Shown: positions 9,268-52,947, numbered from the stretch's first letter. The stretch is DNA of 64,000 nucleotides from an uncultured Candidatus Saccharibacteria bacterium (GCA_964429815.1 CAYSCM010000001.1:352001-416000), one strand, 5' to 3'. A program made the numbers and translations. Notes: generated by a model not told the origin, from the sequence alone.

Positions 9268-9290
9268 GCCCCCTTTGGTATACTCTCGCT

Positions 9291-9917: not shown

Positions 9918-10319
9918 ATGATGGAGCGCGAGCGATTCGAAGAGCTGGTGACGCAGGAATTTCCGAATGCGGTACCGGAGAGATTCCGCGGTCATATCAA
10001 AAACGTCGCCCTCCTTGTCGAAGATGAACCCTCGGAGGAAGTTCGCGCCGAGGAAGGGCTTGCCGGCAACGAGACGCTCCTTGGTCTCTATCGAGGGATT
10101 CCCTACGATGACCGCGGCGGCCTCTATGGGGTGGGGGCGACGCTCCCGGATACCATAACGCTCTATCGAATACCCATTCTCGAGGAAGCGGGGGAGAGCG
10201 AGGAAAGGGTGCGGAAGATTATACGGGAGACCATCTGGCACGAGGTGGCGCATTACTTCGGGTTCTCGGAGAGAGACGTAGGGCGTCGCGAGGAAGACGG
10301 CACCAATTATTCACGCTAA
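9918..10319 (+). CDS. zincin-like metallopeptidase family protein
   Basis: 133 aa with HEVAHYFG (HExxH) motif; acidic. Confidence 0.65.
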   Translation: MMERERFEELVTQEFPNAVPERFRGHIKNVALLVEDEPSEEVRAEEGLAGNETLLGLYRGIPYDDRGGLYGVGATLPDTITLYRIPILEEAGESEERVRKIIRETIWHEVAHYFGFSERDVGRREEDGTNYSR

Positions 10320-13634: not shown

Positions 13635-14762
13635 ATGAAAAAACTCATAGTCGGCGCGGCGGCCCTCTTTGTCGTTGCCCTACCGGTCTCTGCCGCTACG
13701 ATGCGCGCGGGTAACGATTATATGCTCGGCCAGAACCAGACGGTCCCGGACAATCTCTACGCGGCAGCAAGCAACCTTACGCTCTCGGGCGTCGTCTTCG
13801 GTGACGCGCTGGTAGCGGGAAGGACGGTGCTCCTCAATGGGCTCGTCAAGGATGACGTCGCGGCCGCAGGGGGCACGGTTCAGCTCCTCTCGACGGTAAA
13901 CGGCGATGCGCGCGTCGCCGGAGGCGACGTAACGATCGGCGGCAAGATCGCCGGCGACCTCATCGTCGCCGGCGGCACCGTGCATGTGCTCCAGAGCGCT
14001 GTCATCGGAGGGGACGTCGTCATGCTCGGCGGGGCGCTCACCTTCGACGGGGTCGCTCTCAAAGATGTGCGCATGATAGGGGGCAGTGCTCTCATCCACG
14101 GCCTCATTACAGGCTCACTACGCGCAAATGTCTCGAAGACGGTCACCGTCGCGACCGGCGCTTCCATTAAGGGGAACTTCGATTACGCCGCCCCGACCCC
14201 GGCGACGGTCGAGAAAGGCGCCATAATCGGCGGGAAAATAACCGCGACGACGACACCGGCAGCGCCAAGCGAAACGCAGGCGATATTCGCAACCCTCGTC
14301 TCCATCGCACTCCTAACGAAATTCATTATCTTGGCGCTCGCCGCGGCGCTCCTCGTCTATTTCTTCCCCCGTGCGAGCTCCTCCGTCACGATGAAGACGC
14401 TCGCTGAAATTCCAAAGAACACCATTCTCGGCTTTACCGCGCTCGTCGTCATTCCGATTGCCTCCGTTCTCCTTATGGCGACAGTGCTTTTCTTCCCCTT
14501 TGGCATCCTCGTCCTCATCCTCTACGCGTTCCTTCTCGGGCTCTCCAAGCTCTACGTAGGCGTCGTCGCGGGGGCTCTTCTTTCTAAGTGGTTCGTGAAA
14601 AGGGAGGGGGTGAATGTTGGCTTTGCCATTCTCGGTACGGCGGCTATCGAGCTCGCCTCACTCATTCCTATCGTCGGCTGGATAGTCTCAGCGGTGTTTT
14701 GCCTCGCTACGTTTGGGGCCATTATGCGCATCCTCAGCGCCCGCTACGGCGCGCAGCGATAG
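13635..14762 (+). CDS. membrane protein with polymer-forming beta-helix (bactofilin-like) repeats
   Basis: 375 aa; signal peptide, repeated G(D)xVxxGGxV motifs, then four C-terminal TM helices. Confidence 0.5.
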   Translation: MKKLIVGAAALFVVALPVSAATMRAGNDYMLGQNQTVPDNLYAAASNLTLSGVVFGDALVAGRTVLLNGLVKDDVAAAGGTVQLLSTVNGDARVAGGDVTIGGKIAGDLIVAGGTVHVLQSAVIGGDVVMLGGALTFDGVALKDVRMIGGSALIHGLITGSLRANVSKTVTVATGASIKGNFDYAAPTPATVEKGAIIGGKITATTTPAAPSETQAIFATLVSIALLTKFIILALAAALLVYFFPRASSSVTMKTLAEIPKNTILGFTALVVIPIASVLLMATVLFFPFGILVLILYAFLLGLSKLYVGVVAGALLSKWFVKREGVNVGFAILGTAAIELASLIPIVGWIVSAVFCLATFGAIMRILSARYGAQR

Positions 14763-15169
14763 TGTGGATAGCGGATTCTGTTATACTACGCTCTGGCACG
14801 CGTGAGTTCCTGCTTTTTACTGTCTAGCGTAGTGAGAGAAATCAAAGCTTGCTTTGGTTTCCGAGCGAGCGACGACAGCAAGGGTTCCAAGAACCCTTAG
14901 TTTGCCCCACAGCGCAAGGTCCTTCTTGTTAGATGGGGCAAATCGGAGATGAAAACAGCCCCCGCTCTCCCCTATATCAGCACAGCTGATCGGGCGATCA
15001 TCAGCATCGCTCGATGTTGATGATATAGCCGCGGCGGGCCGTTTTCGTTTTGCGCCTTACTTCAGGCTTATTTTTGCAAAAGAGAATGAATAAAACCGGG
15101 CGTCCCAATCGTCGGCACGTTCAGCGCCGACGCACGGAAGTAGCAGCGCCTGAGCGTAAACTTTGCAGT

Positions 15170-15205
15170 GGCGGCTCGTGCAAAAGCGAGCCGCCTTTTT
15201 CTTTT
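15170..15205 (+). terminator. rho-independent terminator
   Basis: ggcggctcgtgcaaaagcgagccgcc + tttttctttt; ends an unassigned ~400-nt structured intergenic region. Confidence 0.75.
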
Positions 15206-15223
15206 GATGCTACAATCCCGGCC

Positions 15224-15892
15224 ATGACTAAGGGGAAGGTGATTGAGCGGAGGGGAAGAATCTTGAGAATGAACACACTCCTGAAGCGGCTTTACCCAAA
15301 TGCAAAAATTGCCCTCCGTTACAGAAACAATTGGGAACTTCTTGTTGCGGTGCAACTTTCCGCGCAGTGCACGGACAAAACGGTCAATCGCGTTACGGAA
15401 AAGCTCTTCAAGAAGTACAAAACGCTCGACGACTACGTAAAGGCAGGTCCTCGAGAGTTCGAGCGGGATATTTTTCAAACGGGGTTTTACAAAAATAAGA
15501 CCAAAAACATTCTTGCGGCAGCGAAGCTCATCAAAGAAGACTACGGCGGCAGAATCCCTAAAACGATGAAAGAGCTGCTCCTCATTCCCGGTGTTGCACG
15601 GAAAACCGCGAATGTTGTTTTAGGGAACGCGCACGGTGTTGTCGAGGGTATCGCCGTCGACACGCACGTGCGCCGCTTTGCGCTCAAATTCGATCTAACC
15701 GACCACCGCGACCCGGTCAAAATCGAGCGCGACCTCATGGAGCTTTTGCCTAGGAAGGAGTGGTTTGCCTTTACCTACCGCATTATCGAATACGGCCGGA
15801 AGGTCTGCCCAGCACGCGTTCACGATTGTGCGGCTCATCCCCTTAGCAAAATCTACGCTCTCGCTGCGGGGCGCTTTCCCAAGGCGAAGTAA
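15224..15892 (+). CDS. nth: endonuclease III-like HhH-GPD DNA glycosylase
   Basis: LLVAVQLSAQCTDKTVNRV, HhH-GPD LPGVARKTANVVL, catalytic D in GIAVDTHV; only two Cys (CPARVHDC), so an incomplete 4Fe-4S motif. The ORF-track N-terminal extension overlaps the terminator and was rejected; alternative start 15269. Confidence 0.8.
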   Translation: MTKGKVIERRGRILRMNTLLKRLYPNAKIALRYRNNWELLVAVQLSAQCTDKTVNRVTEKLFKKYKTLDDYVKAGPREFERDIFQTGFYKNKTKNILAAAKLIKEDYGGRIPKTMKELLLIPGVARKTANVVLGNAHGVVEGIAVDTHVRRFALKFDLTDHRDPVKIERDLMELLPRKEWFAFTYRIIEYGRKVCPARVHDCAAHPLSKIYALAAGRFPKAK

Positions 15893-34672: not shown

Positions 34673-34694
34673 AAAAAGATGGTATAGTATTCCC

Positions 34695-35166
34695 CGTGCA
34701 CCGGATAATCGCGCACCCCAAAGGAATTTGAGGAGGTGAGGAAAGTCCGAACACAGCCGAGCACCTGTAAGGTCGTAGTGCCGCAGGGATGCACTATTGC
34801 TTTACAGGTGCTCGGAGCAGGTAGCGTCCTAAGCTTTCGCTCTGCGAAAGCCGGATCCGACACTCGCAAGAGTGTTCAGGAGGTAACGCCCGTCCACCGT
34901 AAGGTGCGAGATGCGAACAGAAACGTCGATGCCGAAAGGCTAGAGTCCCCTCGGGGATTGTCTCGTCGAGAGGCGAGGATGAAACGGCTAAACTCTTACT
35001 TCTGTGCAAGGCCGCGTCGAGCACCTTTAAGGTTGTATTGGAGCAAGAATCAATATTGCTTTAAAGGTGCTCGAAGTGCCGCTTGAACCGCACAGCGATG
35101 TGTGGTCCAGATAAATGATTATCGTCCGCCACTGGCGGATACAGAATTCGGCTTACAGGTGCACGC
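34695..35166 (+). ncRNA. rnpB: RNase P RNA (bacterial type A)
   Basis: GAGGAAAGTCCGAACAC (P4 5' strand), AAGGCTAGAGTCC, ACAGAATTCGGCTTACAGG (P4 3' strand) in canonical order; P1 helix cgtgcacc...ggtgcacg; followed by a terminator. ORF-track ORFs here are spurious. Confidence 0.85.
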
Positions 35167-35178
35167 ACAAATGATGAA

Positions 35179-49171: not shown

Positions 49172-49194
49172 AGAGATAGTGTAGCAGATTTCGG

Positions 49195-49267
49195 CGACCC
49201 TACCGGGATTCGAACCCGGGTTACCGCCGTGAGAGGGCGGTGTCCTAGACCACTAGACGATAGGGCC
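49195..49267 (-). tRNA. tRNA-Glu (anticodon CTC)
   Basis: RC fold: acceptor GGCCCTA/TAGGGTC (one G-U), D-arm gtct-agtggtcta-ggac, anticodon stem ccgcc/ggcgg loop ctCTCac, T-arm ccggg-ttcgaat-cccgg. Confidence 0.8.
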
Positions 49268-49575
49268 TCGCTTCGCTCGGCCATGCCGCCGTCGCTCGTT
49301 CGGAAATGAAGGTGCACTTTCATTTCCCTCACTTCGCTAGACGATGGGGCCAAACACGGCGATTCTAGCATTTTCTCCTCCAAATGCTAGGATGACGTGC
49401 GTAGTTTATCAAACGGAGAGGTGGCTGAGTGGAGAAATCGCGAATAGCTTCGCGATTTCTCCGATCCGCGAAGCGGACGTGCCGATGTGAGCGAGCCTAC
49501 CGGCGAGCGAGAAGGCACGAGGTGGACGAACTTGTTCGACCCTCAGCTTCCATTTAGTATGGGCGAAGCCCATAT

Positions 49576-50441: not shown

Positions 50442-50773
50442 GGGCATAGGAGACTGTGTTTATTTATGCCAACACGATACCACTTTTTCTTTTTCTAGCC
50501 TGTATGGCCGATTTCCACGCCATGCAAAAGACAGATCTCTTTGATACACTCTAATCGCTCCATGAAGATTGGATCGCGTAGCTGTATCCGGGTTCGAACA
50601 TCGTTCAGGCCTGCCCGCTCGGACCGGTAAATGTCCAGATAGGTCAATTTTGAAAAAGAGCCTTATGAAATGGGCCTCTTTTTCGTCTCCCAAATTCGCC
50701 AAAAAGGTTCGAATCCTAACCAGTCTCTGCTTCCTCACCTTGGTGATGTATATTTAGGCCATCATTTTAATCT

Positions 50774-52555: not shown

Positions 52556-52732
52556 TTAGTCAGACAGCTCCTTACCGTCTCGTCGGATTTCTTCCCGCAC
52601 CCACTCTCGAAGCCTCGCCTTTCTAACGGCTTCCTTTTCCAGTTTTCGCATCTCCTTCTCACTCTTGTCCGGCCAGTCAATTTTCACACCCTGGCGAGCG
52701 CAAACACGTTTGATAAGATGAAAGCGCTCCAT
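52556..52732 (-). CDS. hypothetical small basic protein (island cargo), start inside internal repeat B
   Basis: MERFHLIKRVCARQGVKIDWPDKSEKEMRKLEKEAVRKARLREWVREEIRRDGKELSD; a truncated homolog (MERLECIKEICLLHGVEIGHTG) starts at 50563 (-) inside repeat A. Confidence 0.35.
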   Translation of the reverse strand: MERFHLIKRVCARQGVKIDWPDKSEKEMRKLEKEAVRKARLREWVREEIRRDGKELSD

Positions 52733-52947
52733 GAACGATGGCTCGCGTAGCCATAGCCGGGTTCGAACGTCGTTCAGGCCTGCCCGCAACGGTTTGTAAG
52801 AATGCTCCGGTGGAGCATTCACGCAAAGCGTCGGATTTGTCGTGAGGTGGGATTCGAAAGGCGGAGCCCGACAAACGCAAAGCGTTTGTTTCGGGCGAGC
52901 CCGGGCAGGAGCCACTTTCCGCCGGAGGCGGATTAGTGAGCTGACGC

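Follow-up and report, generated by a model that had tools for sequence, protein, structure and literature searches.

Rickettsia palindromic elements (RPE) and similar small bacterial repeats are small, multi-copy, and non-autonomous, and they form long imperfect stem-loops with A-G type mispairs (PMC2229807). RPE are mostly intergenic, and copies also lie in frame within conserved protein genes and interrupt RNA genes (PMC2229807). They occur in reduced genomes, in which both filled and empty sites are seen (PMC2229807). All of these traits are common to the repeat described here, and RPE are its closest likeness. Among other palindromic repeats, REPs measure 20–40 bp, one end bearing a GTAG or CGTC tag (PMC3733652), and whalefall-1 is a hairpin motif of environmental sequences only, with a CUUG-capped stem and purine-rich flanks (RF01762; PMC2864571).

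Here, we analyzed 64,000 nt of DNA from an uncultured Candidatus Saccharibacteria bacterium (GCA_964429815.1 CAYSCM010000001.1:352001-416000; this whole stretch is called the window, and positions are counted from its first letter), with attention to the gap that precedes the nth gene. The genomes of Patescibacteria (CPR bacteria), to which the source of the window belongs, are very small and streamlined and are thought to be poor in mobile DNA. To our knowledge, little has been reported of noncoding RNA or mobile DNA in Patescibacteria. Our preferred reading, to which we assign a probability of roughly 0.7, is that the gap is a mosaic of a small noncoding core and three extra segments, one of which is a mobile repeat of Patescibacteria.

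Extent and Composition of the Gap

The gene upstream of the gap (13635–14762, on the + strand, as is nth) encodes a DUF8173/bactofilin-like membrane protein and has its stop codon at 14760–14762. A preliminary description, made from the sequence alone, had placed a structured noncoding region at 14763–15205; nth begins at ATG 15224, so the gap itself is 14763–15223. Apart from a TTG-started extension of the nth frame (15050–15892), no ORF longer than 35 aa lies between the upstream stop and nth. The extension is not credible because 222-aa nth homologues cover 100% of the product of ATG 15224, which also identifies that codon as the nth start. The noncoding nature of the gap is thus borne out, with no credible ORF in 14763–15223. 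The best 80 genome matches of the nth protein are all Patescibacteria-type MAGs, with identities of at most 76%, and the window sequence is identical in two Logan assemblies.

The + strand of the gap folded at −188.5 kcal/mol, whereas shuffles gave −146.8 ± 5.8 (z = −7.24) and none of 100 did as well; the − strand gave z = −5.5. This agrees with the earlier view of the region as structured, and each of the near-perfect hairpins named at that time is present in the sequence. The high score reflects the sum of these local hairpins and not one large fold.

One relative, represented by the contigs L083 and L084, shares the gene order of the window (DUF2817, dinB, DUF8173, nth, HAD, PspC, a second HhH-GPD gene, MFS, and RNase J), with protein identities of 74% for nth and 58% for DUF8173. 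The next DUF8173 homologue is only 35% identical, and the nth and DUF8173 searches show the window’s lineage to be isolated; the other nth relatives, L085–L088, are not syntenic. In the relative, a 123-aa ORF containing two CxxC pairs separates dinB from DUF8173 (L083 8313–8684; L084 3802–4173); the spacing between these genes in the window is only 23 nt. Its DUF8173–nth gap is only ~190 nt long, and BLAST of the window against L083 gave four collinear blocks (A–D) separated by three segments found in the window only, as also delimited with covariance model R2:

14763–14804, + strand: block A, with TGTGGATA, TGnTATACT, and GCACRCGTG
14805–14896, + strand: first window-only segment
14897–14970, + strand: block B, a hairpin and the 5′ half of a terminator
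14971–15030, + strand: second window-only segment
15031–15049, + strand: block C, the 3′ half of the terminator and its U-run
~15050–15205, + strand: third window-only segment
15204–15231, + strand: block D, TGCTACAAT and the nth start

When the three segments were deleted in silico, the remaining core was 86% identical between the window and L083 over 130 columns (~125 nt). The flanking genes are 62–69% identical as DNA and only 34–42% at third codon positions, so the core is under strong constraint. Conservation, which the preliminary description had proposed as a check, is divided: part of the gap is far above neutral expectation in the nearest relative, and ~300 of 440 nt are absent there. 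These ~300 nt are the three segments, and the single ~440-nt RNA that had been suggested is not upheld. On this comparison, the region is a real noncoding unit and a mosaic one. As only two genomes were compared, insertions 2 and 3 (the second and third segments) could equally be deletions in the relative.

Neither nhmmer nor model R2, applied to 1.3 Mb of related sequence, recovered the core anywhere but in the window and L083; a weak match in L071 falls in coding sequence. For insertions 2 and 3, no relative was found in the 207 loci and 1.3 Mb of related DNA searched or in the remainder of the window, and no further relative of block A came to light.

The Core as a Candidate Small RNA Gene

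The conserved and added parts of the gap are as follows:

14763–14813, + strand: conserved upstream block A, collinear with L083, 33/43 identical in BLAST
14820–14899, + strand: insertion 1, copy 1 of the hairpin repeat (model R1 match at 14814–14882, 79.7 bits, E 2e-25)
14900–14947, + strand: core hairpin GUUUGCCCCA ... UGGGGCAAAU, followed by the linker AAAUCGGAG; 81% identical to L083 in BLAST
14948–15051, + strand: putative terminator T1, with its 5′ half at 14948–14970 and its 3′ half and U-run at 15031–15051 in the R2 alignment
14971–15030, + strand: insertion 2, 60 nt with two hairpins, inside the T1 loop; absent in L083
15052–15205, + strand: insertion 3, a window-specific 3′ extension of ~154 nt after the T1 U-run; absent in L083
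15208–15216 and 15224–15226, + strand: promoter-like box TGCTACAAT and ATG of nth, apparently leaderless, with the spacing seen at seven other genes

Block A holds TGTGGATA (14763–14770), the extended −10 promoter-like box TGTTATACT (14779–14787), and GCACGCGTG, and the L083 counterparts are TGTGGATAACG...TGCTATACT...GCACACGTG. Boxes of the form TGnTAnAnT lie 6–7 nt before the start codons (ATG or GTG) of eight long ORFs in the window, at 9276, 13620, 15208, 17029, 41197, 46602 (−), 49178 (−), and 49701, and others lie 5 nt before the 5′ end of the RNase P RNA and 15 nt before tRNA-Val. The spacing from box to start suggests that this genome uses extended −10 promoters and mostly leaderless mRNAs. 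The box at 14779–14787 is kept in L083 and has no start codon after it, so it most likely starts a noncoding transcript at ~14795 (14794–14796).

The core hairpin has the internal loops CAGCG and UUAGA, and model R2 aligns it in both genomes. Between the window and L083, a single G-C to G.U change leaves the stem of this hairpin intact, and the tip varies in length; with the core known from two genomes, its structure rests on that one change and the variable tip rather than on true covariation. In L083, the core folds as one hairpin with internal loops followed by the terminator (z = −5.0). Here T1 is uninterrupted and is called as a terminator at 10007–10026, followed by TCGTTTTCGT, with the stem lengthened by pairing between an A-tract and a U-tract. 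Model R2 aligns both halves of T1 in the window around the 60-nt insert, and the fold of 14950–15052 retains the outer stem. In the window, the putative terminator T1 keeps its stem and U-run around a structured loop of 66 nt.

A G+C-rich hairpin directly followed by a U-run is found both in T1 of L083 and at the end of insertion 3. The latter, T2 (15170–15205), corresponds to the rho-independent terminator of the preliminary description; our scan places its stem at 15170–15195, with 10 pairs (8 G-C), followed by TTTTTCTTTT, and its U-run at 15196–15205. With a conserved promoter-like box upstream and two predicted intrinsic terminators downstream, transcription of the + strand, as proposed earlier, is most likely.

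From sequence alone, then, the core combines a conserved box, a called terminator, and conservation above the neutral level, and with its TGnTATACT box, hairpin, and intrinsic terminator it looks like a small RNA gene. Similar to independent and 3′-UTR-derived small RNAs, it has a promoter-like box, a 5′ hairpin, a linker, and a terminator, and it sits 3′ of a gene; it differs from them in being known from two genomes by sequence. With low confidence, we suggest that it may act as a trans-acting or 3′-UTR-type regulatory RNA.

The core might instead work in cis, as the 3′ UTR and terminator of the DUF8173 gene, a case that the preliminary description had allowed for, or as a leader of the attenuator or riboswitch-like type governing read-through into nth. 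It lies directly 3′ of the upstream gene on the same strand, and UGGGGC (14934–14939) can pair either with an upstream GCCCCA or with GCCCC (14958–14962) of the T1 stem, alternatives that resemble a choice between anti-terminator and terminator; the distance from T1 to nth, at 20–170 nt, would also suit such a role. However, nth has its own conserved leaderless promoter-like box past T1 in both genomes (TGCTACAAT, 6 nt, and GTG in L083), lacks a Shine-Dalgarno sequence or leader, and is separated from T1 in the window by 154 nt and a second strong terminator. The conserved promoter-like box upstream of the core argues for an independent start, and neither the window nor its insertion-free relative gave an Rfam riboswitch or leader match. 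We therefore regard a cis role as quite improbable and continue with the core as a candidate small RNA gene of its own.

Insertions and the Single-RNA Alternative

Insertion 1 consists of an outer stem, P1 (14820–14824 with 14874–14878), a tandem-G.A core, an inner stem with a CUUG loop, and a second small hairpin (14880–14898). It is bounded by TA at 14818–14819 and 14898–14899 and is missing from the syntenic L083 site. The ends of insertion 2 form an 8-bp inverted repeat, CTATATCA/TGATATAG. Insertion 3 comprises a CGUCGGC/GCCGACG hairpin (15111–15133), a stretch once compared with SRP RNA (GGAAGUAGCAGC), and T2, with no promoter-like box within it.

Expansion hairpins are one way in which a structured RNA might come to look like this, and the window holds an example. 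A class A RNase P RNA lies at 34693–35171 (+; 82.5 bits, E 2e-25), with 479 nt versus 367 positions in the model. Within it are two paralogous hairpins, each of ~58 nt (34757–34815 and 35018–35075; CGAGCACCTnTAAGG...CTTTAnAGGTGCTCG), and a TGGTATAGT box ends 5 nt 5′ of it. These extra hairpins help to bring its score below the gathering score of 100, for which reason a standard Rfam scan misses it. Its hairpin insertions differ in sequence from the Patescibacteria repeat.

By analogy, the interval 14795–15205 could be one large structured noncoding RNA of a new class, with the three segments as its expansion hairpins. The very strong folding z-score, a promoter-like box only at the 5′ end with a strong terminator at the 3′ end, and the position of insertion 2 exactly within a hairpin loop, the usual place of expansion segments, are all in keeping with this, as are the extra hairpins of the window’s RNase P RNA. 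Against it, the L083 relative gets by with ~125 nt, insertion 1 is a generic repeat of unrelated contexts that include a protein gene, neither insertion 2 nor insertion 3 is conserved in any of the 207 loci searched, and T1 stands in the middle of the stretch. The only long-range stem, which closes the minimum free energy fold (14787–14797 with 15148–15159), is a 7+3 bp match of a kind that we estimate to occur about once by chance in a region of this size, and its 5′ arm overlaps the promoter-like box. With ~300 nt lacking in the relative and this sole long-range stem at chance level, we rejected one large fold, and we consider a single large RNA very unlikely. The mosaic of core and added segments remains our reading of the gap.

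Known RNA Families

SRP RNA, 6S RNA, tmRNA, and a riboswitch had been offered as possible identities, and none has an Rfam match in the region. At gathering scores, Rfam recovered only seven tRNAs across the whole window, and a permissive scan of 14600–15400 (E ≤ 10) returned only terminator-like matches and whalefall-1 (15.2 bits). SRP RNA gave no match at E ≤ 10 in 14600–15400 and none at gathering across the window; in the SRP-like stretch at ~15132–15149, the stem around GGAA (15136–15139) amounts to 2 bp, and the comparison found no covariance-model support. Covariance models detected none of 6S RNA, tmRNA, and RNase P RNA in the gap, and ARAGORN found no tmRNA. Among riboswitches and leaders, the best matches are terminator-like: suhB at 19.1 bits in the window, and Phe_leader at 15.8 bits (E 3.8) in L083, which likewise contains no riboswitch or leader match in Rfam. 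Weak Rfam matches to insertion 3 are confined to its terminator hairpin.

For the repeat, the top sub-threshold Rfam match of the window copy and of a copy in contig L078 is whalefall-1 (RF01762), at 15.2 and 16.2 bits, respectively, versus a gathering score of 37. The repeat and whalefall-1 alike are hairpin motifs of environmental sequences with a CUUG-capped stem and purine-rich flanks. However, the first stem-loop of whalefall-1 (CUCCCC...GGGGAG) is not formed in alignments of the repeat copies, and twelve other copies gave no whalefall-1 match at E ≤ 1. We treat the resemblance as superficial. Two further candidates were rejected: the region is not an array and lacks a box C/D pattern, unlike a TIGR-Tas array, and the tandem G.A pairs of the consensus lack the 3-nt bulge of a K-turn. 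The repeat is absent from Rfam 15, with twelve consensus-type copies giving no match at E ≤ 1, and we found no description of it in the literature, although incomplete coverage makes this weak evidence of novelty.

A Hairpin Repeat with a Conserved Core

Within insertion 1, a stretch of 44 nt (14831–14874) shares 95% identity with an Adlerbacteria MAG, at a site whose gene context is different. A degenerate pattern derived from the window and Adlerbacteria copies was used to search metagenome contigs and matched at least 119 of them, often several times per contig, with ~3 of these matches attributable to chance. Viral contigs gave no match to either pattern.

The repeat is ~70–85 nt long, and model R1 has 69 positions. 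It begins with TA, a 5–7 bp outer stem, WAGCGA(A)GY, GAGAGAAA, and a variable inner stem-loop; UUUCCGAGCGAGCG, two nucleotides, and the partner strand of the outer stem follow, usually with a second small hairpin ending in TA. As we read the consensus, two tandem sheared G.A pairs, with Watson–Crick pairs between them, can join the conserved strands. Because an exact pattern was used to gather the copies, the search itself imposed the invariance of GAGAGAAA and TTCCGAGCGAGCG; more divergent copies exist, among them window copy 2 and copies in L026, L017, and L068.

Model R1 found 122 copies in 100 metagenome loci, 15 of which hold 2–7 copies in both orientations (up to 7 in 11.8 kb), and 4 copies in 637 kb of unselected nth-centered loci. 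Two copies lie in the window, the second being:

49282–49350, − strand: repeat copy 2 (R1, 60.5 bits, E 2e-18)

Copy 2 lies between a TGCTAGAAT box (49362–49370) and tRNA-Glu (49193–49267). The 14 nt with which this copy begins, GCCCCATCGTCTAG, are almost the same as those at the start of the tRNA, GCCCTATCGTCTAG, and an 84-nt segment here (49268–49370 region, −) thus looks like an insertion that duplicated the 5′ end of the tRNA. Elsewhere in the window, a 79-nt direct repeat (50540–50618 and 52709–52787, 82% identical), which contains a tRNA T-arm-like GGGTTCGAAC, encloses ~2.1 kb with two ORFs.

In 65 distinct copies of the repeat, 92.8% of the cells in the proposed stems are paired versus 80.7% in shuffles, and 156 cells with double changes were counted versus 35; slid controls reached at most 52% paired. 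Compensatory changes affect 6/7 pairs of the outer stem and 6/13 pairs of the inner helix. After one doubtful pair was dropped, G.U exceeded A.C by 57 to 16, with half of the G.U from one column, and this excess suggests that the fold is strand-specific, on the + strand of the window.

The neighbors of the repeat are unrelated housekeeping genes, and clustering of 713 neighboring ORFs revealed no conserved neighbor and no recurring transposase-like family. Relative to the repeat, the orientations of the upstream and downstream genes are (+,+) in 18 cases, (−,−) in 20, convergent in 20, and divergent in 8, so that co-directional gene pairs hold 18 sense and 20 antisense copies and orientation is unbiased. 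Linkage to tRNA genes is slight, with 8 of ~100 copies within 400 nt of a tRNA, and 3 of the 5 copies in nth-centered sequence adjoin nth, which is not significant (rough binomial p ~0.07). Degenerate copies adjoin nth upstream in a Liptonbacteria MAG (L068 3876–3941) and downstream in an Adlerbacteria MAG (L026 4722–4787), as a copy does in the window.

The related contigs L134 (646–753) and L196 (2298–2405) carry the repeat at the same place beside tRNA-His, on the opposite strand, and these orthologous copies show a compensatory change in P1 (CTGCC/GGCAG versus CTGAC/GTCAG). Such a change fits selection on the fold no less than it fits selfish spread. Direct tandem copies are present in L149 (966–1174) and L182 (2635–2734), the second copy beginning within ~10 nt of where the first ends.

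Such findings could mean that the repeat is mainly a functional RNA module, a protein-binding, processing, or stability signal that cells would use at many loci and that would be a working part of the small RNA here. The strong covariation and the conservation of the core across very different genomes point that way, together with the excess of G.U over A.C and the compensatory change between two orthologous copies. In addition, both window copies lie just 3′ of a promoter-like box, in sense orientation, at the 5′ end of RNA genes. Yet copies between co-directional genes show no preference for the sense strand, no gene is a conserved partner, one copy sits within a protein-coding domain, near-identical copies occur in one contig, and the nearest relative has no copy at its nth locus. 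A primarily functional role is therefore unlikely in our view, and we favor a mobile repeat.

Evidence for Mobility and Comparison with Known Repeats

Two filled/empty comparisons are available: window copy 1 versus L083, and the MurC protein P0134 versus P0136 and P0139. In the second, an 84-nt copy (L168 5511–5594) lies in frame within an intact MurC ORF, and the Pfam domain Mur_ligase_M spans it. Solved MurC structures align on either side of the insert and leave 26 residues unmatched, while 28 residues are missing in orthologues that are 85% and 59% identical. Another orthologue, P0135 (86% identical), retains only KRLNTP, a six-residue remnant that matches the second hairpin of the repeat. 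The murC copy matches an intergenic copy 4.6 kb away (L168 895–965) at ~96% identity, even in the variable stem. This contig also has a cluster of four copies downstream of one gene, which alternate in orientation over a span of 450 nt (L168 715–1150). The repeat thus shows the features of a small mobile repeat, with dispersed copies in both orientations, filled and empty sites, and near-identical copies.

Window copy 1 and the murC copy each have TA at their two junctions, and TA is nearly invariant at the 5′ boundary of the repeat and common at its 3′ end. This may reflect duplication of a TA target, although the flanks are T/A-rich and longer flank repeats occur at murC (TTTATT) and at window copy 2 (14 nt). 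Terminal inverted repeats are lacking: reverse-complementing the 3′ end (..CCCTT) does not give the 5′ end, TTATCAAGCG / CTGTCTAGCG. Given this lack, and that of a recurring transposase-like gene near the copies, transposition is no more than a possible route of movement.

In comparison with RPE, which are 105–146 nt long (PMC2229807), the Patescibacteria repeat is shorter, has no terminal inverted repeat, is unrelated in sequence, and belongs to another host phylum. Conservation is much higher in its internal loops than in its stems, and only one in-frame insertion was found among ~126 copies. With TA-duplicating MITEs (Correia/NEMIS, ERIC, and RUP), the repeat shares TA at both junctions in the two filled/empty comparisons and clustered copies in either orientation, and both would be co-transcribed as stem-loops. 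Unlike these MITEs, it lacks terminal inverted repeats, an IHF-type motif, and a known parent insertion sequence, and it is about half their size. Similar to REP/BIME, it is palindromic, dispersed, and intergenic, forms a strand-specific hairpin, is enriched between convergent genes (20 versus 8 divergent), and alternates in orientation within clusters. In contrast to REPs, the repeat measures 69–85 nt and its consensus has no GTAG or CGTC tag, and no RAYT-like gene was seen among the 713 neighboring ORFs. By analogy with these families, the repeat is probably a new variant among small mobile palindromic elements, MITE- or RPE-like.

Proposed Origin and Significance

Under the mosaic reading, the ancestral part of the gap would be a noncoding unit of ~115–125 nt with a TGnTATACT extended −10, a hairpin, a linker, and terminator T1, and a leaderless nth promoter would lie directly 3′ of it. 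An 80-nt TA-flanked copy of the hairpin repeat would then have entered the 5′ part of the unit, a 60-nt double hairpin the loop of T1, and a ~154-nt tail would have supplied T2 as a second, strong terminator. If its swollen loop weakens T1, transcription may read through to T2 and yield an RNA of ~410 nt; if T1 still works, the RNA would be ~255 nt.

The repeat itself may be a non-autonomous mobile element of Patescibacteria, with new copies arising at TA sites and persisting as strand-specific hairpins. Its fold, with variable stems around two tandem G.A pairs, might be read by some protein on single-stranded DNA or RNA. A more speculative reading, which is possible although we hold it to be doubtful, is that the repeat is an undescribed phylum-wide element, that its G.A core is the site of an enzyme that copies it via a folded single strand, and that it has been co-opted as a 5′ module of RNA genes such as the small RNA and the tRNA-Glu precursor.

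The unusual length and strong structure of the gap upstream of nth now have a likely explanation, and the gap contains a candidate lineage-specific small RNA under strong constraint. The covariance model R1 describes a repeat found in hundreds of environmental contigs, in RNA genes, and in at least one essential protein gene. For gene callers and RNA finders, the repeat can be a source of error, and it has produced false ORF extensions. It also offers a handle for finding the protein that reads its fold. If an enzyme does copy the repeat via its folded strand, this would be a new mobilization system in genomes regarded as poor in mobile DNA.
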